IMG/VR virus record: IMGVR_UViG_3300025164_000635
Location: 1 to 64,000 of that record
Strand: one strand, 5' to 3'
DNA: 64,000 bases
From: a virus
A model generated the notes under the pieces. That model saw nothing but the letters and a program-made list of their open reading frames with translations. It was not told the DNA's origin and ran no database searches. Below are positions 18,386 to 59,639 of this stretch, in pieces. The stretch's first letter is position 1. Each line of letters starts with the position of its first letter. Position numbers and translations under genes: made by a program.

Positions 18386-19260
18386 CAGTCCTCTCCCGTC
18401 CAGATGCCATGATTCAGCACGGTGCCGCCCTTGACGCTTACTGGACAATCTGAGATGAGCGTACCAGGATAGTGACCGTTAATTCCGATGGCGTTTGCGC
18501 CGTTCGATACGAACTTCACCGAGAAGCCATGACAAACTGCGTCCAGCGCCATTGTGATGGCCGTCCCATTGAAGCCGGAGAAGTTCAGGTAAGCCTTCTT
18601 GGATAACCCGGTCAGGGCAACTCCTTCAGGGACGGTAATGCCGGCCGTCATTGTGATTTCCCTGGAAGGAAGCCGCACGGCGCTGCGTGGCAAAGCAGCC
18701 GCCAGGGCCGCCACCAGGCCCGCCTGGGTCGCATCGTAGCCCGTTCGAGTGCCGTCTTTGAACAGGACAATGTTATTTCGGGCAATCCCAGCCGCCATCT
18801 CGGAGATGTCCACTCCGTCGATTGTGATGCCTGGATCGACTCCCAGGTTTCCTTCCAGGTCACGACTACCGTCAATTTTAAGGAACTGGGGAGCTTGAGC
18901 ATCATGTAGTTGGCCCAGGTGATAGATGCTATCCAGTTCGTGCGGCTCCAAGCCCATCGCCACAGAGCCAGCCGGAACGACCGCTTGTGCTTGTGCATCG
19001 GCAGCCACACCGCTGTTTGAGACGACCAACATATTGCTTCCCGGAATCCGCTCAACAAACACCTCTGAGTTGTAGGCCACACTCACGCCAATCGGGACCC
19101 GGGCCCGCTCAACCGAGCCACCTGACACCCGTACCAAGCATGTCCCATCGATCGTATTAGCATCCAGGACACGTGCTCGCCAGGTACGGGTTTGCGATTG
19201 ATTCTCAATCGCACCCGAGAAGGCTGCTTTAGTGTCTGAGTGAGGCTGTCCGAGTGGCAT
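18385..19260 (-). CDS. minor tail protein (N-terminal OB-like, C-terminal beta-helix start)
   Basis: position between tail tip and fibre genes; FLKIDGSR, TIDGVDIS, ITVPEGVALTG patterns. Confidence 0.6.
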   Translation of the reverse strand: MPLGQPHSDTKAAFSGAIENQSQTRTWRARVLDANTIDGTCLVRVSGGSVERARVPIGVSVAYNSEVFVERIPGSNMLVVSNSGVAADAQAQAVVPAGSVAMGLEPHELDSIYHLGQLHDAQAPQFLKIDGSRDLEGNLGVDPGITIDGVDISEMAAGIARNNIVLFKDGTRTGYDATQAGLVAALAAALPRSAVRLPSREITMTAGITVPEGVALTGLSKKAYLNFSGFNGTAITMALDAVCHGFSVKFVSNGANAIGINGHYPGTLISDCPVSVKGGTVLNHGIWTGED

Positions 19261-19262
19261 CT

Positions 19263-23177: not shown

Positions 23178-23611
23178 GTAAGGGTGTCCTCCATGACCCG
23201 GATCGTGACTGTCCAGTATTCCTGGGCCGGGGTGAGTTGTCGAATAGGAGGCTCAATGACCATCAGACACCGGTAGCCATTCCCGGCATCTCGATTGACC
23301 GGGAAAGTGGGAGCGTCGTCGTGCAGGATGGGCATGTAGTAGCAGGTCTCGCCGGACAGGGCAATCAAGGCGTCCTTCTCGGCGGGCGTGGCAGTCACCT
23401 GCATGATGGCATCCCGGAACGTTACAATGTCTCCAGCGTTCCTCAAGCGATGGACATGCAATGCACCCGTCAGACTGCGTTCCTGGGAGACGGCTGCGGT
23501 CAAGCGTTCCTCGGGTCCGGGCTGGGCCACATGGTACATCGTTGAGTCATGTACCGGTTCATCGTCACTGTCCAGGAAGAGGTGTATGTGGTTGTGGATG
23601 ATACTAGCCAC
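23174..23611 (-). CDS. distal tail protein-like
   Basis: small gene directly after the tape measure gene; synteny only. Confidence 0.45.
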   Translation of the reverse strand: MASIIHNHIHLFLDSDDEPVHDSTMYHVAQPGPEERLTAAVSQERSLTGALHVHRLRNAGDIVTFRDAIMQVTATPAEKDALIALSGETCYYMPILHDDAPTFPVNRDAGNGYRCLMVIEPPIRQLTPAQEYWTVTIRVMEDTLT

Positions 23612-32600: not shown

Positions 32601-33065
32601 GCTGGCCTTTGCTCCTGGGGCAAGGCTTTCTCGGAGTGCGTGGGCATACATTTGGGGCTGGAGAAAATAGCCCTCTTCCTTCGGGGTGCCGGTGTATTTC
32701 TCAGGCTGGAAGTGGACCTTCTCGGTGGGCGTGGAGACCTTAACGTCTGAGACGTTGATGATCTTATCGCCACCGTTCCAGAGCACGACGTCAGGCCGTC
32801 CCTTATAGGGAATATCGTAAGCTCTGCCGGTCAGCCCCTTGATCTGAGTGGAGATACGCGCAACGCCCGTCCCGGAAAGAGTCTCAGGATGGGCTTTTAC
32901 GAAGGGGATCAGTGTGTCTGAGACAAACTGATCGAACTCTTCACCGTGCTTGATGTCTTCAGATGACCAGAAACCCTGCTTGGGATCGCTGGAGAGGTAG
33001 GGCCAGCCTTTAGCGGAATAAGCGGCCGCGCTCGGTCTGACTTCGGGACGATCAGGAGGAGGCAT
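23604..33065 (-). CDS. giant tape-measure protein fused to a putative two-barrel RNA polymerase and an N-terminal PD-(D/E)xK domain
   Basis: tape-measure position after tail tube and chaperones; C-terminal Gly/Ala hydrophobic and Q/E/R helical repeats; QRRP and RFQGDADGDQVALF (aa ~1121, ~1171); KSWLGNKA..EDL (aa ~700); GRPD..DVK..QPQMY (aa ~92-140). Confidence 0.8.
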   Translation of the reverse strand: MPPPDRPEVRPSAAAYSAKGWPYLSSDPKQGFWSSEDIKHGEEFDQFVSDTLIPFVKAHPETLSGTGVARISTQIKGLTGRAYDIPYKGRPDVVLWNGGDKIINVSDVKVSTPTEKVHFQPEKYTGTPKEEGYFLQPQMYAHALRESLAPGAKASLFFAPKTIATDIIVAWHGLNEENRVEYARQIMRRMTGQNVEEIPHLSSELVPVKNITYSERPVAEAKEFQPGGTLYTPIRAASDEAGLIEKWTGFHPHRLSEFERGTGEPGSPVIPFAWRRDMRALYEIAGMLAKGARKGDFSEEEAIKELQSHMQEIGVSSFDPTRLPQRAAEKPTEPVAETSPLGFARVAYGRVKEILGAKSILTQGGRFILPDIASEKETGEMPVVQEGRLGEFRGQPTIDDVLVTPVQFEAGMRPVQPEIFSELMHVWRKSIGEGMTPRAAMRLVNERRRKLMEGMPRVGPVFGETSTAAGEALNQLAVKINQVGQERESGDPMTVQRWYEKSGGLVARGRDPSLGYDIEQLNKALPGHVSTPGRIRAGLLLEQIAKIRKRVSMAARRDYMLSAAPETGRNIISPFRMEGAPRSERGIHFNVGYTPNLPEGMMLMDAATMRQMDAQGGFVLPHQEDIPLPSGVDFTPDEEAYRRQTGGSIPLGRLGHAREIAFKAKQFMQFAVNRAFQHYESGESMLRVEGVGKVSGEQELIKSWLGNKAVGMAYEDLNKRVEGGALNIEALMPVAQAPRQELFSLVSDYYATKKRGFELLTKTLQSMGLDPYKEGLVEDYDPEEREWARKSKAAITGKRLIWGEKLDPYIIQIGRAIQQQMVKQNVRMSIPVSYEEAETYARVHGRESLGQIDWDDWRQNRNERREVTFQGAMPVGGRMFQMEKLWTGRAQATLGELQAMPPRMAERALREGGHQRQYYESLLKSATASRDPTTREDMNVVSLADLREEIAKLPSELSFVEKMAQVTPGRYVDIGGGVITPPLPQMSIMSVPSEVTGMVNPIPGTEKDVFPQEEHNAIIHYYETLVKARAGSNEEARAFGQVRDRMNRLMGTKAVAKGLVSSDVTGRMGTEGTYAFIPGARPMEVIVGEKALRELTGMPSGDMSQEALDRYVETGMTALGQRRPDVLQGVTSMPGFRIVTTAEAGRLGIPVPRNFQGMAFSQMIANRFQGDADGDQVALFLATVFKIGKSITTPGEAARRSTEEEFLERQFRFLELVTGEQVHGQRTWENYLTVEDDLVRRTGMKASELAKWMQNVGKAPKTADEFFGSLEQMNASVTTKDARQAYLVEQIAQKQRGDVFNPFVRNLSIAMKSMGMNTQSEQDTLARTSYFAYQASLDEPVSSGMRTLMGIMNSYSLRTGGEDDPTSRGRVRGKIRETLDPTMGKPPEREVDFQALPKEIIRAVLEAEEFRGFADPTKEQLNKAWHRDVATLLSSNPETRTGIAKRLEGVTRDDVTEELVNDLIQGMGGEQGFWKEAGPLTAVIGTRITNRGVQSKAPWLRGIMRDVINNPQYTNFQQTAKGRQPTGGFGFFERLATPMLAAQRLESGNIAPWVTGEKSEDEEERARGLLSDLASAGLLPTYVTETVSRGLEAFRQKSWEAMQRIRLGVGVPSLDEYDNPGSSGNLANINDEERELLEARRKIAKEERDRLDAAMKARVSGELSPEELAARFDPTAPAPTPRAQGGGGRKPPSRRPPVMAIPPEPETPPEPRLTPQTPGGVTPGESARAAGIFQEGSGIETAEFVARRRAQAKAEREASTTTGYKEPGQVPADIAAQSMGDFVKLLTEEGGDVGRAIGRVLMYQGRPKNLGYKYGGERFQEQLSIIRQRIKEGQTFGQAMAETFPPGTTEGGERYEGGVLEQMFQGKMTPAAAETFRRLESGRVTEKFIAERFAEMKTLGGGAVGPESTAENFRQIAAAAIQQKETNKYLKDFGETLQTARRHTEDFGDVLKRIQQGREAPAERKWAQEMMAAAGPQGDIQAARSLRGLFQELGFTPEQRRAVGQQIVQLREAGAEDQDPLSRAALQRSARSAMGRIFGEGDVSQIAFAAWNLQRAWRMTGGQITGRMDDYAKFLGGQQQDVAMMGGPAGFFGPAGTVRRGQVAAQRFGLSVGRAGWDIMGPVMEATSGVLGMEDPDQPSLGSYALAAGGLGLGSLFALAGGGRLASMAGLGVLGRPMTGLAENIAGGVVGRAGGLARGVRGLGETAALRGMYALEGRALGRLALRGAGVGGGLVGGALGIGLLGGELLGEAGANIGEAQGGETGASIGRVAGTGAGILGTRALLGARLAGGGAITGPLTGGIALGGAIYDETIGRQQGITAGQIVNQLLGGIDTGARLLVASLSQSADVWKDAQRTGAMWAERAEGSSREGSKATQEAAEQMKKFADYSRFGKELEARMEAIRQPMEAGTGVKVGALLAQATGMDLQTMMRPESIKAMQQLMLLPPELQQQRMGLGVGMARAAGMEWGGAGFAGTIQQAISLTPQQQLRAQFNLGQISPIGGLAQQYGVQLPALTPDLITNLSPEQRTMLTRVGSLDPVAISREATRLQGMQPQLQQAQFAQNLRAEATRMQDMTLAQQNITQEAREQRDRDRSLMQQGASFLFPETAIRAAAVGGQRGIFGAGQAIAAQMGQVQQVIQRAIPTTQPDFRSLIQVEPETLQRAGTTDVSMFAPSDWAMGQRLYGRTTAPIDTGMNLVQAQSQARMADRAYQQFQYQQQLAQLGRQQVYQLGGQIGGYDFTGGFNIEQAQLGEGARAQRRQFQLQAGTMNYGWLGRGADAFQGMGGEYADLERMGAAGLGYRQFYENLEQQRRVSGIQRGRTEEDVQRQYQRQMTGLGWQEQDLTVNFERSMTRFTQSLQDLTTNFQRGQTQFGWQRENLAFQGSQQALSFGWQMEDIDTAMRYATGRERRQLSRQRERGVVGYGMQVEQLGREGERLEERQQWAQEDFNRERNRLEERRGWAEEDFGKEKDRIDTRREWAEEDLARALERLLEQGKLDEEQFGLRAKQFEEDQKMAKLRHDESVKHFSITNGLQVKAFEDRKKQFEIESAAQAVSLIKTMLHTAEVIRLQDQIGVLTSAMSYRFDRFSEDIKDPNGKLANSLNAIVLDISGALGSAHQPYFKGHDTVFRAFERLTEAVVANVNRAVQELTSG

Positions 33066-33067
33066 CG

Positions 33068-33430
33068 CTAGGTCCGGTTGAAGAGGTTTTGAAGATCATT
33101 CTTGCCGTTCCCTTGTTGGAACTTCTGCTCCAGGACTTGATCCATCCACTCTCGGAAGTCGGACTCGCCCGAGGCGCACGCCTCGAACTCGTTCATCAGG
33201 ATGTGTGGCTGTGAGGCAACACCACCTGGCCACCACAGGCTGTTCCAGGTTCGGCACTTGCGATAGAGCCAGTAGACCTCTGGCATCTTCTGAACTCCCT
33301 CCGGGAAGAGGGCTGACTCAGGCACCATGGAGAAGGTGTTGCCGAACTTGAGGCGTTCGGCTTGGTAATACTCGTACTTGAGTGCACCCGCTACCGCCTC
33401 CTGAATCTGGCGATAGTGGGCGCTCATCAT
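33068..33430 (-). CDS. tail assembly chaperone (gpT-like)
   Basis: between chaperone and tape measure; LWWPGG...QP motif; overlaps the upstream ORF in the -1 frame. Confidence 0.55.
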   Translation of the reverse strand: MMSAHYRQIQEAVAGALKYEYYQAERLKFGNTFSMVPESALFPEGVQKMPEVYWLYRKCRTWNSLWWPGGVASQPHILMNEFEACASGESDFREWMDQVLEQKFQQGNGKNDLQNLFNRT

Positions 33431-33903
33431 TTTGCTTGCTGCCAGTCCCAGTCTGGATTGAACTGACGAACCGCCCGATGGATGGTCTGGGCAACCAACG
33501 GGTGGAGCTTGCCCCATATCGAGGTGAACTCCTCCCACTTCATGATGTTGGCCGGCATCTTGGGGAAGACCGGCTTTCCGTTGCGTTCCAGGTTGCCCAC
33601 GTCTTGCAGAGTCCAGTAGGCTTCGTGCTGGATCCGCTCACGCCAGTTATCATCAATCACTTCAGACACGGCCAATCCGCTTTCGTCGGCCCCGGTGTAT
33701 CGTACCTCTCGTTTCGACTGCAAATCCGTTCTCCGGATCTGATCTTCTTCGGTCGCCTGCCGGACAACGACCCACACCCGTTTGGCGTCCCGTTCCTCGT
33801 CAGGAAGGCCGTCCAACTGTTGGTCTTCCAGGGACTTGAAAGCTGGCGAGATGTCGGCCAATTTGATCGGCTCACTGATGGTCGGATAGAGTGCGAGATC
33901 CAT
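33427..33903 (-). CDS. tail assembly chaperone (gpG-like)
   Basis: directly after the tail tube gene; AGGAG RBS; C-terminal NPDW. Confidence 0.6.
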   Translation of the reverse strand: MDLALYPTISEPIKLADISPAFKSLEDQQLDGLPDEERDAKRVWVVVRQATEEDQIRRTDLQSKREVRYTGADESGLAVSEVIDDNWRERIQHEAYWTLQDVGNLERNGKPVFPKMPANIMKWEEFTSIWGKLHPLVAQTIHRAVRQFNPDWDWQQAK

Positions 33904-44435: not shown

Positions 44436-44764
44436 TCGAGTACCCCCAGAAGTACAATCTTGAGTGTGGCTCCCAGGGGAGCCACCACGGAAACGCCGGT
44501 CAAGGTAGCGCCTCCTAGGTAAGCGACCGTGCAGTCATACCCTGAGACAGCCCCGTTCAGCCGGAGCTCAATCACTTCGTCACTCGACAGGAAAAGAGAG
44601 GTGACGCTTGACAGAGGGGCCGGGAAGAGATCGACTGCGCTGGCCGAGGCTGGCAGCTCCATCTCGTATTGCATCATCTCAGCATCCCCGGTCAGGAGGT
44701 TCTCAAACAGGGGTGAAATGCGATCACCGTTTGTGTCCAGCACCGATAGGAAGACCTGCTTCAT
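44432..44764 (-). CDS. hypothetical virion protein
   Basis: coupled to the portal gene. Confidence 0.5.
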   Translation of the reverse strand: MKQVFLSVLDTNGDRISPLFENLLTGDAEMMQYEMELPASASAVDLFPAPLSSVTSLFLSSDEVIELRLNGAVSGYDCTVAYLGGATLTGVSVVAPLGATLKIVLLGVLE

Positions 44765-46377
44765 TTGGGTACTCCTGCAGGAACAGGTACGGGCGCGTTC
44801 TGCCCATTCCCGGACGGCTGGCCACCCCCGAAGGGAGCCGGCTTCGATTCCGCGATCGCCGTAGCCCGTTTGATCTCAAGCTCGTTCTCAAATTCCATGT
44901 CGGCCCGGATGCGGTCCTGCTCTGCTTCGGGATCGTGGACGCCAATCTCGGTCAGGTAGCTCAGGAGACTGATACCGCCCTTCGTGAGGCGGTTATTGAG
45001 CATGTCGGCTCGTTCGCTTACTTCCAGGGGGATTTGAGGATTCCAGATCAATAGTTGATTGAGGCGAAGATGGTCTTCCGAGAGGTTGACTGGCAAAGTA
45101 ACGCCGGCCTGGGTCAATGCATTTCCATAGCCCATCAGGCCGGCCAAGATGATGCGATTTAAGTGCCGCATGGCGGTCGAGAAGTCGATGCGCTCAGCTT
45201 GTGTGTGCGCCATCGTCGGCCACATCCGGTAAGCCGTCACCGGGCCCGTGATCCGGCCGCCCGACACATCATCGTCACCCAGAGCGACGGCTGCAATGTC
45301 GGCCTGCCGGCGGATCTCGTTCCAAAGCTCAGCATCGTAATTGGCAAGACTGGCTGGCACTTCGGGATAGCGCAGGAAGTCGGCCTTGGGATCGCCTGAG
45401 TTGGGAGCTGCTCTCTTCACGCCCAAATTGAGAGCAGTCGATACTTCCCGGCCATGCTCATCGAGAACGGGCTGCATCTTCAGACCCTTCTCAACATTGG
45501 CAACAGTCATGATCGGATGGGTGACTTCCCGGACGGCATCCCCTTTGTCAGCCGATCTGAAATTCTTCTCTCGCGTCAATCCTACCAGGTCGGGAATGTG
45601 ACTATTGCCCCAGAATCCATCGTCTCGAATGTGGGGGATATAGACGATGGGCACTCTCTTGAATGGGTGTGGCCCTTCCAGGATACCGTATCCTTCAACT
45701 TGGGCCACTTTGCCGTTCACCCGAATGACATAGCTGTCCGGCGTCCAGTGCTCCATGTAGAGGGCATCTTCATTCTCATCAACCTTGACCCCGTAGCGTG
45801 CGGCATCCACAGATGAGATCAGATAGCCAATGTAGCACTCCCGCAGGTTCCACCATTGGCCCTTGTCGTAAACGGGTAGCAGCGTTCCTGGTGTGACCGG
45901 GAAGATACGCAGGCGGGTCGCTAACTCAGTATCTTGGGGTTGCCACAGGACTTGCAGGCCATACCCGCCGAACACCTGGGTCATCAAGCCCACCCTCTGA
46001 ATGAGCGCAGTCGCTTCTGAGTCATCCCAAGTGGAGCGTAAGAGGTCCTGAATAGAGGTCGCCTCAGCTCGTGAGGTGCTACTATCACCGCCCGGTTTCA
46101 CGACGATCTGGACAGGGTTTGAGAGGACATTGTGAGGCTGAATCCCGATCAGTACGTCACGGTGGACGCGACACACTTTCCCGATCGGGTTCAGGGCAAG
46201 GGGATAGAGCTTGGGGCGATCTCCGGTCGCCGGATCGGAGATACTAGACTCAGGATCACGAATGGAGTCCCCGCGAAACCACGACAGATAATCCGCGTAG
46301 GCGGTTCGCCGGGCAGCCCACTCGTCTGAATTGTAGAGTTCTTCGTCTGGATTCTTGACCAGGCCAAAGCGTGCCAA
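44761..46377 (-). CDS. portal protein
   Basis: 538 aa after terminase; HPF.RVPIVYIP....FWG.S.I.DL SPP1-type pattern; SG..ITG. Confidence 0.85.
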   Translation of the reverse strand: MARFGLVKNPDEELYNSDEWAARRTAYADYLSWFRGDSIRDPESSISDPATGDRPKLYPLALNPIGKVCRVHRDVLIGIQPHNVLSNPVQIVVKPGGDSSTSRAEATSIQDLLRSTWDDSEATALIQRVGLMTQVFGGYGLQVLWQPQDTELATRLRIFPVTPGTLLPVYDKGQWWNLRECYIGYLISSVDAARYGVKVDENEDALYMEHWTPDSYVIRVNGKVAQVEGYGILEGPHPFKRVPIVYIPHIRDDGFWGNSHIPDLVGLTREKNFRSADKGDAVREVTHPIMTVANVEKGLKMQPVLDEHGREVSTALNLGVKRAAPNSGDPKADFLRYPEVPASLANYDAELWNEIRRQADIAAVALGDDDVSGGRITGPVTAYRMWPTMAHTQAERIDFSTAMRHLNRIILAGLMGYGNALTQAGVTLPVNLSEDHLRLNQLLIWNPQIPLEVSERADMLNNRLTKGGISLLSYLTEIGVHDPEAEQDRIRADMEFENELEIKRATAIAESKPAPFGGGQPSGNGQNAPVPVPAGVPK

Positions 46378-46675: not shown

Positions 46676-46903
46676 TTACAAGAATCTCTGTCGTTTGTCA
46701 ATATGGCGTCTCGTGACCACGCGCCTGAACCTTCCGCTTGCTCTAACCGACCGCAGACCGCCTCGGCTTCTCGGCTCGACCTGAATCTGAGGATTTGCAG
46801 TGTCTTCGATGAGCTGGGCCTGCCAGCGTATAACAATCTGCAACATTCGGCGTAACATTGACTGAACCTTGTCCAGTGACCAAAGTCCCATACGTTTGAT
46901 CAT
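46676..46903 (-). CDS. hypothetical protein
   Basis: ATGA-coupled to the terminase stop. Confidence 0.45.
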   Translation of the reverse strand: MIKRMGLWSLDKVQSMLRRMLQIVIRWQAQLIEDTANPQIQVEPRSRGGLRSVRASGRFRRVVTRRHIDKRQRFL

Positions 46904-48759
46904 CGCCGATCCCTCCGGGTCTGTGTTCGTGCTCCTCGATAGGAGCTTCTCGGCAGCCTCACCATCTCTTCGTCATCACTGGCCGGCATGGGTTTCAGAT
47001 CTTCGTTGATCCTGAACTTATCGACCACCCTACTCCAAAGAGTCCCTTCGTACCTGACCGCCAAGCAGTATACAAACAAAGAGGCAATCACGTCATCGGA
47101 CAACTTATCGTGCCCCGGCCCCTTTTCCCGGTAAACGCCGCCTTGATACCAAAGAGCGGTCAGCTTCGGCCAGGCAAAATGACTATCTTGCGCCAAGAGC
47201 GTAAATAGAGACCGAGCCCAGGCTTTGTTGTTACCGGCAAACGTGACCGGCACAGTCTGATAGCTAGCGAAAACACCACTGTCCTCGAACCCGGTCAGTC
47301 CCAGATTGGTCGCGTCGTAATAGCCCATGGCTGCGTAATCATCCATGCACTGCTTGAACGCGCTCAGCCACGGATCGTAAGTCCCATCCCCATCCAGCAT
47401 CCCAAAATAGACTAACGGGATTGGTTTCACCATGAAGGTCGTCAAATCAAGCGCCAATACGGTCGGCACATTCTGGTCACTCAGCTGGGCCGGATACGAC
47501 TTTCCCGGATCGCCCACCACAATGTAGCTATGTCGCGCAATTGGCGGCACTCGATACCGGATGACGCCCATTTCCCCTCGACTCTCAGACGGGATCCGCT
47601 CGGCCAGTAAGTCCTTATCCATCTCTTCATCGTGGCACCGATTGAAAAGCACTTCTGGCAATAGCCGATTCAGGCTCGAGGAGTTCGTATCCCCACCCAA
47701 CCAACGCCTCTGCTCGGCCTCAGATAGCAAGGCCCCATGAAATGCCTTCTGCCGATCGGTGATGTAGACGTTCGCGTCTCGGTGAATCCCCTCCACGTAG
47801 CGTGCCTTCACCAAAGGATCGTTCTTCTCGGCCAGCGTCCTGATGCGTCCTTTGAGCACTTCCAACTCAGGATTCAACATCCCGTCTTCGGGTGGGTTCG
47901 TCAGCATGGTCAGTTTCGACCACATATCCTCACCATTCGCCCGTTGTCCGCGCGAACGGGTCATGAGTGTTCCCAAAGCGGCCACAATACCCATGAGGTA
48001 CTGCACCTCGTCCACATTCAGCCAATCCACATTCTTCCCGGTAATGTTCTGCGCTGTGCCATCTCGCCCAATCGTTTGACACACAAACCGGCTCTCATAT
48101 TGCGGCCCAAAGGGACTCCGAATCACCACGGTCGGGTGTGGCTTTGAGACAAACAACTCGCCCCCACGAGTCATCTCTACAAATTTCGTGAAGGGCGTAT
48201 CGGTGCACCACTTTGTCAACTCTTCCACCATCAATACGGCCTGATTCTCGGTGGGCGCCACGTTCAGGAACCGGAAGCCCGGATACAACGCACAGCACCC
48301 CAGGCCCGCCACGGCTACCGCACTCGTCTTGCTCGTCCCGGTCCCCGTGATGGCCAGCACGACCGCCACACTCGGATCGATCAACCCATTCTGTATCACC
48401 CACGGCAAAAAGAGATACCCATGCGGATACAAGAAGTCTGGCTCAGCCAGCTCTGTCCAGCGCGTCTCAATACGCATGAGGCCAAACCCCTCGACCTCCA
48501 GTTTCATCTCCTGCTCCGGCCGGCCCGCCTGCACCCACATCTCGTGCAACTGACCGTACTCAAAAAGAGACCGGTAATGGCCAGTCTCACCCCCTTCCGC
48601 CCGCCAGCGAGTCCCCCCGCCTGGCAAGCGCATGTAGTAGTTCGTCAGCACATTCAGGTCACCGTCGCGTGCCTCCTTCAATACCCGCATGTCTGACGGC
48701 TCCGCCAGCGACTCAAATCGCTTCATCCACCTCGATAACGCCCTCTCGTCCGCCCTCAT
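46900..48759 (-). CDS. terL: terminase large subunit
   Basis: Walker A GTGTSKT, Walker B WLNVDE, motif III LTNP, nuclease VVGDPG...YDAT...SDD. Confidence 0.85.
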   Translation of the reverse strand: MRADERALSRWMKRFESLAEPSDMRVLKEARDGDLNVLTNYYMRLPGGGTRWRAEGGETGHYRSLFEYGQLHEMWVQAGRPEQEMKLEVEGFGLMRIETRWTELAEPDFLYPHGYLFLPWVIQNGLIDPSVAVVLAITGTGTSKTSAVAVAGLGCCALYPGFRFLNVAPTENQAVLMVEELTKWCTDTPFTKFVEMTRGGELFVSKPHPTVVIRSPFGPQYESRFVCQTIGRDGTAQNITGKNVDWLNVDEVQYLMGIVAALGTLMTRSRGQRANGEDMWSKLTMLTNPPEDGMLNPELEVLKGRIRTLAEKNDPLVKARYVEGIHRDANVYITDRQKAFHGALLSEAEQRRWLGGDTNSSSLNRLLPEVLFNRCHDEEMDKDLLAERIPSESRGEMGVIRYRVPPIARHSYIVVGDPGKSYPAQLSDQNVPTVLALDLTTFMVKPIPLVYFGMLDGDGTYDPWLSAFKQCMDDYAAMGYYDATNLGLTGFEDSGVFASYQTVPVTFAGNNKAWARSLFTLLAQDSHFAWPKLTALWYQGGVYREKGPGHDKLSDDVIASLFVYCLAVRYEGTLWSRVVDKFRINEDLKPMPASDDEEMVRLPRSSYRGARTQTRRDRR

Positions 48760-48944
48760 CCATCCCCCTTCCCTACAGGTGGAGTCTTGCCCCACCATTC
48801 CGTGCGTCTGGAGACCGCCTCATCAAAGGCGTCCAGACAGCTAATTAGAAACTGCGCCAGGATGAAGTCCGGCGTGTCCGACCGATTCTCCATGCTGTTC
48901 TCGTTCAGCAACACCGTCAGCTTGTCCCGAAATCCGTCACTCAT
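48756..48944 (-). CDS. small phage protein
   Basis: LLN.NS.EN.SDTPDFILA.FL..CL.AF pattern; coupled to neighbours. Confidence 0.65.
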   Translation of the reverse strand: MSDGFRDKLTVLLNENSMENRSDTPDFILAQFLISCLDAFDEAVSRRTEWWGKTPPVGKGDG

Positions 48945-49210
48945 ACCTCGAGAGCCTCCGTTATACTCTCAACCTGCCTTACCAACTCCTCCAGGCGCGT
49001 GACCCGTTCCTGAAACTGGTTTGCCAACGCCACATACACCCCATTCGACTGCTCCCTGAGCGTCGGCGCCTCCATCATCGGCCGCATGACGCCCGACAGC
49101 CGCCCCTCCAGTCTCCCCAGACCCTTCTGGAGTTGCTCCAGGCTCACATCCAGCTTAACCAGTACCTCCTGCATGTGTGTCTGTTTAGCCATCTGGTCAT
49201 GCTGCTGCAT
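48941..49210 (-). CDS. coiled-coil hypothetical protein
   Basis: GGAGGGG RBS; heptad pattern. Confidence 0.55.
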   Translation of the reverse strand: MQQHDQMAKQTHMQEVLVKLDVSLEQLQKGLGRLEGRLSGVMRPMMEAPTLREQSNGVYVALANQFQERVTRLEELVRQVESITEALEV

Positions 49211-49469
49211 CTTGCCCCTCCTTGAGATATTCTCGACTTGCCTGAATGTACGCAGGCGGCTGTGTCCAGCCCGACAACAGTGCTAACCACACCCGCCCAA
49301 ATACTAGAGCCGATAGCCTTTCTCGCAAACTCAGCCGCCAGCAGGATACGCACTGCTCCCCATCTGACCATACTGCCAGCGGCACCACTCCCCCTACCCT
49401 CTCCGAGTAACTGTGACTGCTTGGAAACAAGACCTTGTTCGCTAACCCAAAAGCCACTGGCCTCATCCC
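49197..49469 (-). CDS. hypothetical protein (MRPV.F...LP.W.DG..CVSCW.L...ER...L..GR.WL.L....QPP)
   Basis: C-terminal part of ORF 49197..49649, start probably MRPVAF. Confidence 0.55.
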   Translation of the reverse strand, partial: GMRPVAFGLANKVLFPSSHSYSERVGGVVPLAVWSDGEQCVSCWRLSLRERLSALVFGRVWLALLSGWTQPPAYIQASREYLKEGQDAAA

Positions 49470-49811
49470 CCACCCCACCCCACCTGCTCCATCAGGGCTA
49501 CCAACGCTTCCGTCACCCGTATCCACTCGTCCCACTGCGCCACCAGACGCCTTGGCGCGTTCGCTCTCATCATCGACGCCCTCTCTATCAGCGCCCTCAA
49601 CTCCCCCACCCCCAACGGCCTCAAACTCTCTTCGGTCACCATCCCTCACACCTCCTCTTACAGAGTCCCCCTATTCTACCACTCCCCACCCTTCTCGGCC
49701 TCACCCACGCATACAACTTGGCCGCCGGAAAAGGGAGAAATATATAAGAACAGATGGCCTTTTAGTGAAGTATAGGGCTTTCTGTCCACATCCAGGAAAG
49801 GAGAAAGTGTC

Positions 49812-49919
49812 ATGTCACAGGTTGGTTCGTTCATTCTGTTGGTCGTGGCCGCCGTGTTCATTCTGGCTGGTGGTGGCGCAGGCGTCATCATCGGGCAACT
49901 GTTCACGATGGGCTTCTAA
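49812..49919 (+). CDS. 35-aa membrane peptide, first gene of the rightward early cluster (not in ORF track)
   Basis: AGGAAAGGAGA RBS; MSQVGSFILLVVAAVFILAGGGAGVIIGQLFTMGF. Confidence 0.6.
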   Translation: MSQVGSFILLVVAAVFILAGGGAGVIIGQLFTMGF

Positions 49920-50019
49920 CTGAATAGCAGAGGCAGAGGGGCAACCGAAAGGTTGTGTCCCTCGCCCTCTGGGATTCAGCCGAAAGGCTATACCAAGAAT
50001 CCTGGAAAGGAGAACAGCC

Positions 50020-50265
50020 ATGTTGCAGATCAACCATGTCGAGATCAGGACAATCGAGGCCGCGAAACTGATGGACTTCGTGGGCAAGGCGCAACCGTCT
50101 GCTTGGGGTATCGGTCGGTATGCCCTGCAGGCAGGGCAGCCCACCATCCAGGTTGAGCAGCGGGTGTGCCATGCCGCCGCTCTTGAACTGCGCCAGTTGG
50201 CCGCAGAGAAGGACATCGCCAACCCGGCGCTGTTCGCTATTGCGGCCTATCTCGGCAATCTGTAA
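50020..50265 (+). CDS. early hypothetical protein
   Basis: AAGGAGA RBS. Confidence 0.65.
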   Translation: MLQINHVEIRTIEAAKLMDFVGKAQPSAWGIGRYALQAGQPTIQVEQRVCHAAALELRQLAAEKDIANPALFAIAAYLGNL

Positions 50266-50369
50266 AACAACTGAATATCGCAGAGAGGGGCTAGGCCATA
50301 GGCTTAGCTCTAATGCGGCATACCGGTCTCAAGCCCGGTAAACCCATGTCGCATAAAGGAGAAAGAGTC

Positions 50370-50561
50370 ATGCGTACAGTTATCCAGGACCGGGTAGCTT
50401 CAGAAGCTACTCGGAGAGCATACGAACGTATGATGGAGAGCAACCCAAGACCCAGCTACCAGCCTCAGTCTGAGGCCGAAGCCTGGAGACAGGCGTGGAT
50501 CTCAGGCAAGGTCAGCCTAGGGGATGTCCCGGCTCGCTATCGCTCCCTCGTTGCTCGCTAA
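50370..50561 (+). CDS. early hypothetical protein
   Basis: AAGGAGA RBS before MRTVIQ. Confidence 0.6.
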   Translation: MRTVIQDRVASEATRRAYERMMESNPRPSYQPQSEAEAWRQAWISGKVSLGDVPARYRSLVAR

Positions 50562-50676
50562 CAATCGAATATCTGCCTTCTTCCAGGAAGGCAGAGCAGG
50601 CTCATTCTCTCGGAGGAGGATGGGCCTGCTCTGCTTTCTGGGACTAGAGCCCAGAGCAGAGAAAAGGAGAATCACC

Positions 50677-50871
50677 ATGACGTACCCGAAAGGCTACACC
50701 AACGACTACGCTACCATCTGGGAGCAACGCATGAGCAAGGCCATCGGCCTGCACCTACACTGGCTGACTGAGGCATGCTACCAGGCCGCTCTTTACAGCG
50801 ACCGCCTCACCATCCAGGCTCAGGTCAAGCTGGGCAAGCTCTACATGGCTGCCAGCAAGGGCGGCAAGTAG
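50677..50871 (+). CDS. early hypothetical protein
   Basis: AAGGAGA RBS before MTYPKG. Confidence 0.65.
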   Translation: MTYPKGYTNDYATIWEQRMSKAIGLHLHWLTEACYQAALYSDRLTIQAQVKLGKLYMAASKGGK

Positions 50872-50982
50872 TCGTCAATCTACTTCTGTCTTCCCCTCCG
50901 GGAAGGCAGAGGCTTGGGTATCACGGTATCCAAGCCTCTGCCTTTCGGGACTAGAGCCCGAAGCAGAGAAAAGGAGAAACCC

Positions 50983-51252
50983 ATGTCTCACAAGATCATC
51001 TTCGTGCTGGTGCTGGTCGGGCTGATGCTGGCCTTCACGGCCTGTGATGCCTCGAAAGAGGCAGGCTGGACGACCTCCTGTATCCGGGAGTACAAGGCCG
51101 CCAACGATGGGGCTGATCCGGATGCGGACACACTCAAGGCGTGCGTTGAGGCCAAGAGAGATGCTGCTGAGTCTCTCAACAAGACACTCAATCAGGGCAA
51201 GCAGCAGGCCGAAGCCCTGGTTGCTACACCCGTCCCTGACCCCAATAAGTAG
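50983..51252 (+). CDS. lipoprotein (possible superinfection exclusion)
   Basis: MSHKIIFVLVLVGLMLAFTAC lipobox; RBS. Confidence 0.7.
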   Translation: MSHKIIFVLVLVGLMLAFTACDASKEAGWTTSCIREYKAANDGADPDADTLKACVEAKRDAAESLNKTLNQGKQQAEALVATPVPDPNK

Positions 51253-51384
51253 CAAGCTATAGACAACCAAATATCGCTTCACCCCTGCTCCCTCATGGGA
51301 GCAGACCAGAGCCACTCTCCTGCGAGGGCGGCTCTGGTCTGCTTCTGGGACTAGAGCCCAGGCAAACAGAAAGGAGTAGTAGCC

Positions 51385-51879
51385 ATGTTACACAATCCGT
51401 TGTTCTGGTTCTGTGTTGCAGCTCTGCTTGTTGCTATCCATGAGCTGATCGTCCGCAATCGCAACCCCTTCTACGAGCTGGACTTGCGGGAGTATTACGA
51501 GCCGAGCTCCCAGGAAGGGGATGAGTGCCCCATCTGCGGTGTCATGGGCGGGCACGATGCCGAGATATGCACGGGTGATGAGTATGCCGGCGTGTGCCGT
51601 GAGGACTTCTATGTCCAATTCGGCAACACCCCAGAAGTTCGGGAGCTGTATCACATCTGGGTCTCTGAGGCTAATGTGGAGTTCCGCTGGATGGTCATGG
51701 ATATGTGCGGCATGTACGGTGCCTCCGAGACCTTGGGCCGCCTCCGGGAAGCCATCAACGAGGAGCGGCCTCTCGACTTGCCATCCAGCAAAGAGATGCA
51801 CCGCCGCATCCTCCGGGCTTGCCCCGATCCCGACCTCGCCCGCGGTATGGGTGAGGAGACCCTCTACAGAGTGCGATAG
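51385..51879 (+). CDS. membrane-anchored protein with a CPIC...H...C motif
   Basis: N-terminal TM helix; AAGGAG RBS. Confidence 0.6.
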   Translation: MLHNPLFWFCVAALLVAIHELIVRNRNPFYELDLREYYEPSSQEGDECPICGVMGGHDAEICTGDEYAGVCREDFYVQFGNTPEVRELYHIWVSEANVEFRWMVMDMCGMYGASETLGRLREAINEERPLDLPSSKEMHRRILRACPDPDLARGMGEETLYRVR

Positions 51880-51887
51880 GAGGAACA

Positions 51888-52307
51888 GTGGATAAGTATG
51901 TACGGGTCCGTCTGACGAGCGCTAGCCTCTTGGCGCAGTCAGATCCCTTCCCAGTGTTGTTGTGGTACGACGCCAGGAAGCGGGCCGTCCACCTGAAGGT
52001 CATCTCCAGCGCGGGTGGGCGGTATGACGTGCACCTTCGGTTCCAGGTGCACGAGGGCAAGGCTTACCTCATGGATCGGATGTGCTTCTGTGAGGACTTC
52101 GAGTCCTCGATGAAGCACTTCGACATGCTCCAGGAGCTCGGGATGCCGGTTGAGGGGAGTGCCTTGCCTCTCTATCGGGGCCTGCCCATCTGCAAGCACA
52201 TCCTGCTCGGCGGTCTGAAGGTGATCGCCGAGAACTGGGTGGCCCTCTTCCTGGATGGGCAGCCGCAGGCTAAAGCCTTCCAGGAAGATGAAGTCCTGCC
52301 GTTCTAG
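51888..52307 (+). CDS. SWIM zinc-finger protein
   Basis: SS..G.Y.V...CFCEDF...ICKHI. Confidence 0.75.
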   Translation: MDKYVRVRLTSASLLAQSDPFPVLLWYDARKRAVHLKVISSAGGRYDVHLRFQVHEGKAYLMDRMCFCEDFESSMKHFDMLQELGMPVEGSALPLYRGLPICKHILLGGLKVIAENWVALFLDGQPQAKAFQEDEVLPF

Positions 52308-52476
52308 CACGAGCAAAACAACACACGTGCCTCTTGTGCACTCCAATGACGCCACTGGTGTCTGGACATGCAAGAGAGGCATGTGCCATATCATGCCGAA
52401 AGGCAGCGCTTGGCCGCGTTACAGCCGATTGAACGACCTGATAGGCAGGAATCAACCTACATAAAGGAGAACAGCC

Positions 52477-54879
52477 ATGTCGTTCACGTCATTTCGCTCT
52501 ACCCGTAAGGTGGTTGTGGTGGACCGCTTCGGGCGACCCACCGGAGAGGAAAGGATTCTCTCTAACAGCCCGATCGACGCCCTGTTCCCTGACGAGAAGA
52601 TCGTCATGGTGAACTGGAAGTACGAGGGCGCGAAGGCGCCCACCGCTGAAGAGTTGCGCCGGCCGATCCGCCACGGCGGCAACGAGTACCGTGGTGACTG
52701 GGCCTGGGGCAGCAGCGTCAAGCGCGGATACACTGTGGGCCTGACCCGTGACCTGCTGGTGGACACGGGATTGCTGAACTGCTGTGAGGACGCCCACCGA
52801 TTCGGTCGGGCGTTCCTTGCCAACGGCCTGTATGGGGCCGGGAAGGGTGAGCTGCACATCAAGTTCGTGCCCGAAGGGACTCAGACCCTGGCCGGCCCGG
52901 TGGCGGACGGCTTCGGGTATGTGAGACGCTCGGTGGCCGAGAAGATGAATGCCGGACACGACAAGATCAAGTTCGGCACCGCGCGCGACTCGTCGCACTG
53001 GTGGCAGCGCATTCCCTGGACATCCGAGATCCAGGAAGAGCTGGAGCCGCTTCTGCGTGACAACCTGGTGGAGGCTGGTGACCCCGGGTTGTGGATGTTG
53101 AGGCAGTTAGGCGACCGCGATCAGGGTCGCCGCCACCTGGTCGAAGCCGAGCCGTTGATGGCTGAGCACCCGTATGTGGCGAACATGCTCATGAGGGTGT
53201 CCTCAGACATCCTGGCCCGGGCGGCCACGACGGTCCCCCTGAATCACGCGGTGAAGGTTACTGTGCCCGCGAACGTCCCCAACATCGCTGTGGACGGGAA
53301 AACACTGAGCACGCGCTACCCGATCGATGCCAAGAACTCCATCCGGGCGAACAACAACACGCTCAACACCGTGGAAGCCGAGATGGAGCGGATTGCCGAG
53401 ATGGAGCGGATTGCCCAGATGGAGGTCATTCAGTATGGCATGACCTCCATGGGTGACCATCCCTTCTCGGCTAAAGGCTGCGCCGGGATCGTTGACGATG
53501 ATCTCCTCGATGCCGACTTCGTGTTGTGCACGAAGGACATCAAGATGGGTGACAAGAAGTTGGTGGACATCAAGGCGGAGATCGTGGTCTCGGTGACCCA
53601 GTGGTTTGCCCAGGGCGAGGCGGTCGGTGTGAATACGAAGTTCTGGGCCGACCAGGGCGGTGATTGCGACGGCGATCTGGCGTTGATCGCCGATTGCAGT
53701 GAGTTGCCCCGCCTGTGGGAGGCGGTTAGCGGGTTTGGGCTCCAGCCCACGCCCAAGCTCATCAAGACTCACACGAAGCTGGAGGACGAGGACATCCGGG
53801 GTGAGTTGGCTGAGAAATCCATGCTGAATGTGGTCGGCATGGCAGTCAACCTCATGGCTGCGACGTTTGTCACGGCCAACCGGGAAGAGATGGCCCACCG
53901 CCTGGGCTATGCGAGTGAGGCTGCCCTGGATAACGCCCTGAATTACTGGGTGAAAGCAGGCACGGATCTCTTCAAGGTGTCTGTCGACACCAAGCAGCTC
54001 ATGCAAGATCTCTCTCGGTTCCAGAGCAAGCTGGTCAATGTGCTCGGTACGCTGCCGCCGTGGGTGAGCTGGCCCAACGACTGGGCCTTCACGCACGGCG
54101 TCCCGTCCTTCTGGAACGAGGACGAGATGGGTCACCTGAAGAGCGACGATCCTGTTCGGAAGAATGCCGTTCCTACCAATTCCTGGTACGACGGGACCAT
54201 CGTCCAGATCATGAGGCTGACCCTGCTCGCCCTCAGCGCGATGCTGAGCCATACCCTGGCTGTGCGGCCGCTGCATGACTTCCAGAGATGGGCCCTGGTT
54301 GTGCCGGACAGTGTTCTGGGGCCCGCGATCGGTCTCCAGAAGATGTTCGTAGCCGAGTCCCAGCGCGTCAACTGGGAGTGGCCCCAGGATGTCGTCCGCT
54401 TCAGCCAGTGGTGGGCCGAGAAGGTCGCCACCTGGAAGAACGAGATGGGCCTGGATGACACCCTAGCCTGCGCTGCTATCTGGCGCGCGGCCCATGACAT
54501 GCGGAGCAAATACGCCGGGGCGTCGTCTGTGTTCATGGCCTTCCCGGAAGAAGTACTGGATATTCTCCGGGATAAGCCCGGCCTCTCCAAGTTGGTGTCT
54601 GGTGTCATCCTCGGCCTGCCCGAAGTGACCGAGGAGACGGTCATCCAGGGCACCGTTCGGGAGTTCAAACGCAAGGACTCACAGTCCGGCCGGACCGTCA
54701 TCCGCAAGTGCTTGGTGGACGGTAACTCGGGCCTACCCCATATGCCCGACATCAACTACCCGGGCGCGATTGCCGTCTTTGCTTCGGATCACCCGTCGCC
54801 CGAGAATGGGCTGAAGGTGACCGTCAAGGTCACCCGGCGCACCAAGAAGTCCTGGTTCGCTGATTGCATCTGCCAGTAG
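52477..54879 (+). CDS. single-subunit two-barrel RNA polymerase (YonO / cellular-RdRP-like)
   Basis: ADGFGYV, TRYP, QY...SAKGC...DFVL..KDIK, catalytic GGDCDGD (53662-53676), G...N...AGTDLFK. Confidence 0.8.
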   Translation: MSFTSFRSTRKVVVVDRFGRPTGEERILSNSPIDALFPDEKIVMVNWKYEGAKAPTAEELRRPIRHGGNEYRGDWAWGSSVKRGYTVGLTRDLLVDTGLLNCCEDAHRFGRAFLANGLYGAGKGELHIKFVPEGTQTLAGPVADGFGYVRRSVAEKMNAGHDKIKFGTARDSSHWWQRIPWTSEIQEELEPLLRDNLVEAGDPGLWMLRQLGDRDQGRRHLVEAEPLMAEHPYVANMLMRVSSDILARAATTVPLNHAVKVTVPANVPNIAVDGKTLSTRYPIDAKNSIRANNNTLNTVEAEMERIAEMERIAQMEVIQYGMTSMGDHPFSAKGCAGIVDDDLLDADFVLCTKDIKMGDKKLVDIKAEIVVSVTQWFAQGEAVGVNTKFWADQGGDCDGDLALIADCSELPRLWEAVSGFGLQPTPKLIKTHTKLEDEDIRGELAEKSMLNVVGMAVNLMAATFVTANREEMAHRLGYASEAALDNALNYWVKAGTDLFKVSVDTKQLMQDLSRFQSKLVNVLGTLPPWVSWPNDWAFTHGVPSFWNEDEMGHLKSDDPVRKNAVPTNSWYDGTIVQIMRLTLLALSAMLSHTLAVRPLHDFQRWALVVPDSVLGPAIGLQKMFVAESQRVNWEWPQDVVRFSQWWAEKVATWKNEMGLDDTLACAAIWRAAHDMRSKYAGASSVFMAFPEEVLDILRDKPGLSKLVSGVILGLPEVTEETVIQGTVREFKRKDSQSGRTVIRKCLVDGNSGLPHMPDINYPGAIAVFASDHPSPENGLKVTVKVTRRTKKSWFADCICQ

Positions 54880-54887
54880 CATAGGTT

Positions 54888-54917
54888 CCGAGGCCGATCT
54901 TCGGATCGGCTCTCGGC
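54888..54917 (+). other. hairpin with C(UUCG)G tetraloop right after the RNAP gene
   Basis: CCGAGGCCGATC-TTCG-GATCGGCTCTCGG. Confidence 0.6.
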
Positions 54918-55106
54918 TTCTGGGTAGGTGAAAGCCCATCCAGAAGCCGGGAAGGAACTTACCTTCTCTAGCGTGGAGTCTCACCACACTCTCCCTCCCA
55001 CGGGGCACGGCAGCCTACTTCCGGGCTACCGCCGTCTTCCCCCTGGGGCTAACGCCGCACTAAAGCTCCGAGAGGAAGCAAACTCCTATAGGAAAGGTGG
55101 TGTAGC

Positions 55107-55430: not shown

Positions 55431-55495
55431 CCCACAGTGGAGGGGTCCGACATAGGGCCCCTCCCCCCCCACCCTTTCCTGGAAGGAATCGAACC

Positions 55496-55606
55496 ATGAA
55501 ACTCAGCCTGTCCGAACTCATCCTACTGGCCGCTGGGTTGCTTGCAACGGCTACATCTGGCTATCACTCCAGCCCTGGGTCACTGGTGATAGCCATCATC
55601 CCCTAA
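55496..55606 (+). CDS. 36-aa hydrophobic peptide (not in ORF track)
   Basis: GGAAGGA RBS; MKLSLSELILLAAGLLATA... Confidence 0.45.
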   Translation: MKLSLSELILLAAGLLATATSGYHSSPGSLVIAIIP

Positions 55607-55618
55607 CAACATGGCTAT

Positions 55619-55657
55619 GGAGCCGGTGCCCGCGGCGGGTGCCGGCTCCCCTCTTTT
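55619..55657 (+). terminator. intrinsic terminator
   Basis: GGAGCCGG...CCGGCTCC GC-rich stem followed by CTCTTTT. Confidence 0.6.
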
Positions 55658-55659
55658 GA

Positions 55660-56650
55660 ACAGGTGCCCTGAGAGCAGCCCCAGATGACGGGCGGGGTAT
55701 TAAAGCAGGCCAAAACCCTCACCCCGATGACCGTTCCAAATATCATCCCAGGCTGCTCTTAGGGAATCTGTCCTTAAAAAGGCAACAGGCTCTCGCATGA
55801 GGGTCACCCAGGGGCACACCAGGGGCCCTGAAGGGGTGCAATCCCTGTGGCCCGTTGGAACTTCCGGGAAGTACACGGTGGTAGAACGGGCGTTCTATTG
55901 AGGCGGGACTGAGTAGGCGTCGGCAGATTATGAGGGGAGTCACCCTGGAGCGGGCTCTCACGAGTCGTGACGTGAGTGGTGCCGTGCGGACTGAACGTGA
56001 GGTGGCCCGTGCGGACTGCCCTCATAGTCTGCCGAGGCGGACACAGTTCTGCCACGGTGGGGTGGAAGGCCCTGCGGGGCGTGCATGCGCTTGAATCATG
56101 CAGCCGGCAAGTAATGGCTAGAGTAGCCTCTGGTCCCGTGATCACTATGCGGGGAAAGGCAGGCTTGAGCAGGGAATGCGTGCACGCGCCCTGTCAAGGG
56201 AGTTCTGCCGGGCGTGTCTCTAACCCTGGGCACGCAGCACAATCCTAAGCCGGACTTTGAGGGCCGTGATGGATGGTGGGGGAGAGGCCGGGAAGAGTCT
56301 ATGACCGCCGGTGTTTCGGCACCAGGGCGACGGGCTCTTCCTGGCTGGCTCCCATGACCTGTTTCTCTCATGTGTCCGATGGCCGAGAAGGGCTTCAAGG
56401 CAGGCAGTGGAGGCGTGTGGACGATAATTCCTACGCTGGAAACTGCCGTCACAGTTAGGTTCGTGTGACTACGTGGCCGGCTGTGGCCGAGTGGACTGGT
56501 CATCCACTCGTAATGTGCGGGTTCGACTCCCGCCAGCACGCTTTCATGAGCAGTATAGACGCTTTTTGGTTTGAGGCTATCGGGCATTCATACTGGCCTC
56601 AAACCCAAACGGGCGATCTATCCTATTGTTTCGGCAATGGGATAGTGAGA
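55660..56650 (+). ncRNA. candidate large structured ncRNA region
   Basis: about 1 kb without a convincing RBS-led ORF; long stems 55667-55680/55751-55764 and 55920-55936/56019-56035, each with a + strand G-U pair; T-loop GGTTCGACTCC at ~56520. Confidence 0.5.
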
Positions 56651-56683
56651 TAAGGAACACATTGCCTGGAAGGGAGGCAACCG

Positions 56684-56896
56684 ATGAAGAGACGTGTCGT
56701 CATCAGAGGGCAGCCTATGAAGTACATCGTGAAGTACATCAAAGACCCAGTAAGGGACAGGCGAGGGGAGCCGCCCTACCGAGCCCTCATTGACGGGGAA
56801 GAATGTGGCGAGTGGAAGCGAACCGCCATACAAGCGAGCACTGAACACGATCGGATTGTGGCCGAGAAGGCTGCAACCAAGATAAAGGAGGCATGA
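56684..56896 (+). CDS. hypothetical protein
   Basis: GGGAGG RBS. Confidence 0.6.
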   Translation: MKRRVVIRGQPMKYIVKYIKDPVRDRRGEPPYRALIDGEECGEWKRTAIQASTEHDRIVAEKAATKIKEA

Positions 56897-59607: not shown

Positions 59608-59639
59608 TTGACAAACTCTTGATTGGGTGTATAATCAAG
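59608..59639 (+). promoter_or_regulatory. consensus sigma70 promoter overlapped by an inverted repeat
   Basis: TTGACA (59608-13), 16-nt spacer, TATAAT (59630-35); CTTGATT-N8-AATCAAG (59618-59639). Confidence 0.8.

Follow-up and report, generated by a model that had tools for sequence, protein, structure and literature searches.

Which RNA polymerase (RNAP) reads the first genes of a virus is the question raised by the 64,000 nucleotides analysed here (the window), the first 64 kb of the IMG/VR virus record IMGVR_UViG_3300025164_000635, which has 95,304 bp in total and is 100% complete according to CheckV. The early genes lie on the plus strand, between positions 49812 and 54879, and end with the gene of an 800-residue RNAP-like protein, P0001. 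An earlier note on this DNA had proposed a self-contained cascade, in which an injected RNAP transcribes hairpin-led early genes and a second phage RNAP, made from them, takes over. This idea fits the evidence and the layout of the genome. It is not new, because a siphovirus-type scheme with two two-barrel RNAPs has already been published for the Thermus phage P23-45 (Oshimavirus), which the note did not name and which has a virion RNAP (vRNAP) fused to the tape measure, gp96, and a non-virion RNAP (nvRNAP), gp64 (PDB 8H2M/8H2N, 8F72, 8F5M; Chaban et al., 2024, PMC10770324). With moderate confidence, we read the locus as a two-polymerase programme like that of P23-45, carried by a long-tailed phage unrelated to it; its nvRNAP is established by fold, and we infer the vRNAP, from motif and position, as well as the order of transcription.

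The 800-residue polymerase P0001

P0001 is encoded by the last gene of the early operon (52477-54879, plus strand), assigned by fold and conservation. Its sequence had no match in Pfam, PHROGs, NCBIfam or the PDB, nor by tblastn against 50,697 phage records, and no Pfam domain is on record for its nine closest homologues. An AlphaFold2 model based on an 88-sequence alignment reached a predicted local distance difference test score (pLDDT) of 94.7 and a predicted template modelling score of 0.91; an earlier model from 10 sequences (pLDDT 59.8) already pointed to QDE-1. When the model was used in Foldseek, QDE-1 and RDR2 were ranked first (best E 6e-8, for QDE-1), and VIA-align gave Z scores of 14.7 for RDR2 (7W82; 5.5 A, 544 residues aligned), 14.1 for QDE-1, 13.3 for P74-26 gp62 (8F5M; 4.0 A over 385 residues), 11.6 for P23-45 gp64, 10.6 for gp66 of phi14:2, a crAss-like phage (PDB 6VR4), and about 7.8 for multisubunit beta' chains. 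The top 16 structural matches were without exception single-chain two-barrel polymerases, and the matches in BFVD were phage proteins labelled "RNA-dependent RNA polymerase" together with P23-45 gp64.

Conservation points to the same active site. The motif GxDxDGD is invariant in nine metagenomic homologues, as are residues K82, G145, P282, D396, D398 and D400 across 88 sequences of the family (19-44% identity), for which an exhaustive profile search yielded 259 representatives (50%-identity clusters). By its fold, P0001 belongs to the single-chain two-barrel RNA polymerases; its DxDGD metal site is intact and polymerase activity is predicted, and the RNAP-like gene that had been claimed to close the cluster is confirmed at this level. 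Its relation to gp64 and gp62 is structural only and it stands outside their sequence family: hhalign of the P0001 family (A2) against gp64 aligned 26 columns at the catalytic motif and nowhere else, with a probability of 19%, and the best alignments of the family profile in the PDB fell on the DFDGD motifs that gp96 and a phage beta' contain. Two double-psi beta-barrels and the DxDGD motif are shared with phi14:2 gp66, QDE-1 and RDR2 (Z 10.6-14.7), from which P0001 differs in that gp66 is packaged in the virion and much larger, while QDE-1 and RDR2 are RNA-dependent. SPbeta YonO is a further single-chain RNAP with these two features. Since neither P0001 nor its nine closest homologues are recognized by the family models mentioned above (Pfam, PHROGs and NCBIfam for the former, Pfam for the latter), phage annotation pipelines probably miss polymerases of this type.

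A candidate virion polymerase in the tape-measure slot

The candidate for the injected enzyme is found on the structural arm of the genome, in P0002, a protein of 3153 residues (23604-33065, minus strand) in the position of a tape measure protein (TMP). Motif and position single out its N-terminal module (residues 1 to about 1660; 28086-33065), which contains LGQRRP (residues 1119-1124, with RRP at 1122-1124) and, after 46 residues, QGDADGDQVAL, in which GDADGDQ occupies residues 1170-1176 and DADGD residues 1171-1175 (nt 29541-29555). The sole distant homologue of this module, P0012 (2987 residues), is 30% identical over the N-terminal 1,650 residues and keeps both RRP (1171) and QGDFDGD (DFDGD at 1221). 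The signature of P0002 fits the pattern '[RK]xPx{20,100}DxDxD', also kept in P0012, which was the filter used by Chaban et al. (2024) according to the description of their Supplementary Data 4 (PMC10770324). Among all open reading frames (ORFs) of the genome with at least 100 codons, D.DGD occurs only 4 times, and the best local alignment between residues 1100-1200 and E. coli beta' falls on RLGI...DFDGDQMAV. The module is likely to be a two-barrel RNAP carried in the virion, as judged from these sequence features. The RNAP-like domain that the earlier note had placed in a virion protein is in this way retained as far as its motif goes, present here and kept in P0012, with motif and position as its only basis.

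The N-terminal module is followed by a Pro-rich linker (residues about 1670-1725) and then by a C-terminal part in which hydrophobic Gly-rich segments and W/Q/F repeats occur; linker and tape-measure module (23604-28085, minus strand) were delimited by position and composition. The C-terminal part matches 39 metagenomic loci, and the 2 that were checked are large ORFs (at least 1280 residues); matches to the N-terminal module were found in 0 of these 39 loci, and viral and metagenome scans with P0002 likewise returned C-terminal matches only. P0002 looks as if a rare cargo module had been fused to an ordinary ruler protein. Searches of Pfam, PHROGs and NCBIfam, and phmmer against the PDB, gave no match for the N-terminal module, and searches of the ESM Atlas gave no usable one. 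The gene is preceded by two overlapping chaperone-like ORFs and followed by large genes of the distal tail. These two ORFs, of 158 and 156 residues in different frames, are located just upstream of the giant gene (33068-33903) and look like the frameshifted tail-assembly chaperones that normally precede a tape measure. A separate observation concerns the extreme N-terminus, approximately residues 84-145 (32650-32900), where PD...D-x-K and QxxxY-like motifs are found and are kept in P0012; such motifs are typical of RecB/Cas4-type nucleases, a resemblance at the motif level only, with no family match.

The two polymerase families differ in size, with 259 nvRNAP representatives vs 2 proteins with the TMP N-terminal module. 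The latter had no match in five records that hold relatives of the nvRNAP, and no giant ORF with DxDGD was found near the nvRNAP copy of a Chloroflexia metagenome-assembled genome (MAG). In the best-preserved relative, G001 (IMG/VR 3300005077_000795, L010/L072), whose RNAP is 39% identical, the divergent synteny is kept, with the RNAP arm opposite the portal/capsid/tail arm. Its ORF in the TMP slot (16888-20510), of at least 1207 residues and open at the contig end, has a HEIGH metallopeptidase motif, as P23-45 gp96 does; its visible part has no DxDGD and no sequence similarity to P0002.

Early genes, structured spacers and a twister ribozyme

The operon begins at the divergence between the early arm and the arm with terminase, portal and tail genes. 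Seven ATGs, at 49812, 50020, 50370, 50677, 50983, 51385 and 52477, are all preceded by a Shine-Dalgarno (SD) sequence of the AAAGGAG type. An extended form, AAAGGAGAA, exists in 7 copies in the 95-kb genome, 6 of them in the early operon, 5-8 nt upstream of the ATGs at 49812, 50020, 50370, 50677, 50983 and 52477, which bears out the strong ribosome-binding sites that had been noticed before the first early genes. The products preceding P0001, all encoded on the plus strand, are small. Gene 1 (49812-49920), an ORF with the AAAGGAGAA SD, encodes a hydrophobic peptide of 35 residues; genes 2 (50020-50265), 3 (50370-50561) and 4 (50677-50871) encode 81, 63 and 64 residues, respectively; and gene 5 (50983-51252) encodes 89 residues with a signal peptide and a lipobox-like N-terminus, read from the sequence, so that a lipoprotein, with a role in superinfection exclusion, is possible. 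Genes 6 and 7 (51385-52307) abut without a spacer, the former encoding a Cys-rich protein of 164 residues and the latter (51888-52307) one of 139 residues with a SWIM-like zinc motif, CxC...CxH. A Pfam search gave no match for genes 1, 5 and 7. Just 3' of the RNAP gene, an inverted repeat at 54911-54952 (I15 in the inverted-repeat listing, plus strand) is a candidate for where the early unit ends.

The six spacers between these genes (99-169 nt) all fold better than their dinucleotide shuffles, with z from -3.4 to -5.1 and 0-2 of 200 shuffles per spacer matching the real fold; the repeated hairpin elements described in the earlier note are therefore real structures of this stretch. Spacer 1 (49921-50019; minimum free energy -41.8 kcal/mol, z -4.8) begins with CTGAATAGC and forms a GNRA-capped long hairpin plus small hairpins, and spacer 7 (52308-52476; z -3.45) forms a long hairpin and a GNRA hairpin before the RNAP gene. 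Spacer 2 (50266-50369) holds a type-P5 twister ribozyme (Rfam RF02684; 50279-50338, plus strand), identified by its covariance model with 50.0 bits vs a gathering score of 37.6 (E 3e-8, model positions 1-58 of 58). No other Rfam family exceeded the threshold, either in the window or in seven related loci. Counted along the Rfam alignment, the cut is predicted between 50311 and 50312; the mRNA of gene 2 would then be capped by a hairpin at its 3' end, and that of gene 3 would begin with a leader of 58 nt carrying a 5'-OH. It has been suggested that bacterial twisters process polycistronic mRNAs, and for phages this role is regarded as likely (PMC6765202). The element described here resembles the twisters of phage operons in being a full-length type-P5 ribozyme, located on the coding strand and flanked by two small early genes, and differs from them in being a single canonical copy.

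Spacers 3 (50562-50676; z -4.8), 4 (50872-50982; z -5.1) and 5 (51253-51384; z -4.5) are paralogues (50562-51384), referred to as cassette copies A, B and C. Each runs from the stop codon through an AATATC-type motif, a hairpin of 22-25 bp (about 24 bp in copy A) and a small hairpin, with a 5-bp stem and a 7-nt loop that holds the invariant GGGACTAGAGCCC, to the SD. The motif (G/A)AATATC appears 5-20 nt past three stop codons, with about 0.3 occurrences expected in the stretch, and a GAATAGC variant lies past a fourth. The sequence of the long hairpins varies between copies and their pairing is kept; compensatory changes were found at 9 pairs across the cassettes, and the stem of the small hairpin has two double compensatory changes in copy B vs copy A. 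According to RNAalifold, the 5' pyrimidine tract of the cassettes also pairs with the SD.

The cassettes were considered as canonical twisters and rejected as such, given that they have no covariance match and lack the internal loops that hold the cleavage site. GCAGAG and a P4-like hairpin are common to twister and cassettes, and the twister internal loops are absent from the latter; because GCAGAG pairs fully with CUCUGC, no U-AA loop is left. When 49900-51400 was scanned, no ribozyme family of Rfam matched the cassettes at E <= 10, and their only matches were to pre-miRNA models, which is generic long double-stranded RNA. We take the cassettes as probable sites of RNase III-type processing and of translation unmasking, the host-enzyme counterpart of the twister. 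It is very unlikely that the three GGGACTAGAGCCC cassettes form a novel functional module, of RNA or DNA, linked to two-barrel phage polymerases, be it a twister-derived element for self-cleaving or protein-guided processing or a hairpin/CTAGAG promoter read by the phage RNAP. GGGACTAGAGCCC has just 3 copies in the genome and resembles the promoter of P23-45 gp64, GGGTCTAGAGGC; if it were a phage RNAP promoter, polymerases that are alike in fold only would have kept the same promoter recognition. The 15-mer TGGGACTAGAGCCCA is present in 16 viral contigs, probably by chance, and no relative of the RNAP was found in the 5 of these 16 records that were searched; the upstream regions of RNAP relatives showed no comparable hairpin cassettes or motifs.

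The proposed transcription programme and its setting

Between the two arms lies a C-rich non-coding gap of about 600 bp (49211-49811), defined by the gene map and the sequence, which folds no better than dinucleotide shuffles (z +0.5). Since the physical left end of the P23-45 genome is at the same arm junction, this gap is, by analogy, a candidate for the first-entering genome end and for the site of the first early promoter. No consensus sigma70 promoter was found ahead of the early operon, in agreement with what had been noted for TTGACA/TATAAT. Consensus promoters had been placed only at 8649 and 59608. Both exist, the former being the low end of a minus-strand TTGACA-17-TATAAA (11/12 consensus) and the latter a perfect TTGACA-16-TATAAT of the plus arm (59608-59635); further host-type promoters are located beyond the window on the plus arm, at genome positions 75299, 79082 and 86602 (86602 perfect, the others perfect or with one mismatch). 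Because these consensus promoters exist elsewhere, canonical promoters read by the host RNAP are evidently used by the phage, but none is set before its first operon; the units behind 59608, 75299, 79082 and 86602 are likely read by host RNAP within an otherwise phage-polymerase programme.

In the programme that we favour, the N-terminal 1,660 residues of P0002 would form a virion-borne two-barrel RNAP, which, ejected along with the tape measure, would transcribe the first-entering DNA (49.8-54.9 kb) without the host RNAP. The resulting early transcript would be largely polycistronic; the twister would cut it at 50311/50312 toward single-gene mRNAs and the 22-25-bp hairpins would also be cut, probably by host RNase III, leaving hairpin-capped 3' ends and freeing the SDs from the upstream pyrimidine tract. 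The new 800-residue RNAP would then transcribe later early or middle genes, and the host RNAP would read the genes behind the four sigma70 promoters of the plus arm.

It has been reported that P23-45 gp96 transcribes the pre-early genes, about 9 kb that include the nvRNAP gene, at the end of the genome that enters first (PMC10770324). Both phages are long-tailed, with an early arm diverging from a terminase/portal/tail arm, small spaced pre-early genes (spacers of about 70 nt in P23-45) with the gene of a single-chain two-barrel RNAP after them, a giant protein that occupies the tape-measure slot on the other arm and has DxDGD in its N-terminal part, and host-type promoters elsewhere in the genome. 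They differ in the size of the nvRNAP (800 residues in P0001 vs 616 in gp64), P0001 scoring slightly better to RDR2 and QDE-1, and in the position of DxDGD (residue 1171 in P0002 vs 779 in gp96). Strong SDs and long structured leaders are found here, whereas P23-45 has leaderless starts and an AT-rich promoter and a terminator for each gene; a twister is present here, and the vRNAP is a candidate here, from motif and position. We regard the locus as a credible variant of the P23-45 scheme, unrelated to it in sequence, in which an SD-led operon processed by ribozyme and hairpins would replace promoters and terminators for each gene.

Several results weigh against this interpretation. No sequence homology to gp96 or gp64 extends beyond the motif: phmmer against the PDB and tblastn against phages gave no match between P0002 and gp96, and hhalign of the N-terminal module aligned the motif only, both with the gp96/stolb3/TSP4 alignment (probability 2%) and with the nvRNAP family. 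Homologue searches with the module returned only P0012 and near-identical fragments. The alignment with beta' falls short of significance (z 1.8), and a beta-like K..NK..IEALMP segment of P0002 was discarded, as it aligned elsewhere in E. coli RpoB by Smith-Waterman (z 0.3). Since P0002 matches no TMP family model in Pfam, PHROGs or NCBIfam searches, its labels 'tape measure' and 'virion' are positional. Ahead of the operon there is a weak TTGGCC-17-TATATA (49718-49746), and motif searches defined no phage RNAP promoter for either enzyme.

The early region of T7 gives rise to a polycistronic early mRNA that is processed by RNase III and ends in the RNAP gene; its transcription by host RNAP starts at strong sigma70 promoters, its RNAP is of another fold class and it has no ribozyme. 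The present locus is similar in its operon of small host-takeover genes with hairpin processing sites between them and a phage RNAP gene after them, and differs in having no strong sigma70 promoter before the operon, a two-barrel RNAP and a twister. A T7-like alternative, in which host RNAP would use a promoter in 49.2-49.8 kb, weak or non-canonical, to read the operon, the spacers would be RNase III and ribozyme sites, the 800-residue enzyme would be the sole phage polymerase and the DADGD of P0002 would be no active site, is possible, if unlikely. The weak element at 49718-49746 and the long perfect hairpins, which look like RNase III substrates, would suit it, as would the lack of fold or significant homology support for the TMP domain, the unequal sizes of the two families and the report that some relatives of P23-45 have the nvRNAP without a TMP-fused RNAP (PMC10770324). 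It has to contend, however, with perfect promoters being used elsewhere (59608, 86602) and not before the first operon, with RRP and GDxDGDQ being kept at 30% identity within an extra module of 1,660 residues that a tape measure does not need, and with the rarity of D.DGD in the ORFs of the genome.

N4 uses a virion RNAP on DNA hairpin promoters, with a stem of 5-7 bp and a 3-nt loop, and then RNAP II, both being T7-like single-subunit enzymes. An injected polymerase that starts the cascade and a second one made from early genes would be common to both phages; here the small hairpin has a 7-nt loop, the others have stems of 22-25 bp, one element is a ribozyme and the candidate enzymes are two-barrel. 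It is highly improbable that the small hairpin (CTGGG-ACTAGAG-CCCAG) serves as a single-stranded DNA promoter for the injected RNAP, with each cassette gene starting just before its SD. The invariance of GGGACTAGAGCCC, the two compensatory stem changes, the location about 12 nt before the SD and restricted to the early arm's first 1.6 kb, and the resemblance to the gp64 promoter would be explained by it, but of the 7 early gene starts preceded by a non-coding stretch only 3 have the motif, its 5-bp stem and 7-nt loop are unlike N4 promoters, the N4 vRNAP is of the T7-like class, a neighbouring spacer has a bona fide ribozyme in the same relative position, and the five searched records, of 16 that share the 15-mer, encode no RNAP relative. 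The N4-type hairpin promoters of the earlier note were thus not upheld: the elements are long RNA-like hairpins, one a canonical twister and the rest resembling sites of double-stranded RNA processing. We give hardly any weight to a further reading, in which the hairpins set factor-independent transcript ends for each gene, as the terminators of the P23-45 vRNAP do, and each gene has an AT-rich AATATC promoter. The pre-early spacers of P23-45 do consist of a conserved hairpin terminator and a promoter (PMC10770324), and the AATATC-type motifs past the stop codons are in its favour, but here the motif precedes the hairpins, which is the wrong order, no U-tracts follow them and one of the elements is a ribozyme.

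If the P0002 module is a polymerase, the use of an RNAP from the tail ruler followed by a second RNAP would be a strategy that extends beyond Thermus phages, the only ones where tblastn of gp96 in the phage database found relatives, and that recurs in unrelated lineages without sequence similarity. The twister, in turn, is found in a defined context, separating cistrons within an operon that is probably made by a phage RNAP, so that the long-unclear biological role of these ribozymes becomes directly testable.

The rest of the gene map, based on a crude gene call and PHROG matches, shows two arms. The minus strand is the structural arm, with a small ORF in the position of the small terminase (48941-49210), the large terminase (46900-48798) and the portal (44761-46377), the last two assigned by gene call and PHROG, and with tail-fibre-like genes further along, where P0002 is also encoded; the plus strand is the early arm, from 49812 to the end of the record and continuing at 1-10.8 kb. 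The phage is long-tailed and possibly infects Chloroflexota. Relatives of P0001 are present in Anaerolineae and Chloroflexia MAGs, which is a weak hint of the host, and the nvRNAP family was found in just 1 of 401 sampled Chloroflexota genomes; the host is probably other than Thermus.

A stretch of about 1 kb after the early operon (55454-56800) has no convincing ORF, and near the start of this ORF-poor stretch a strong terminator-like hairpin (55619-55649) is followed by a T-run. A DNA methyltransferase gene is located at 3121-5037. The genome has more than 30 palindromes of the CTTCCNGGAAG type (e.g. at 27860, 34876, 50580 and 52277 of the window) and 7 copies of GTTTCGCCGCGAAAC, both mostly within genes, and these repeats may be methylation or protein-binding sites.

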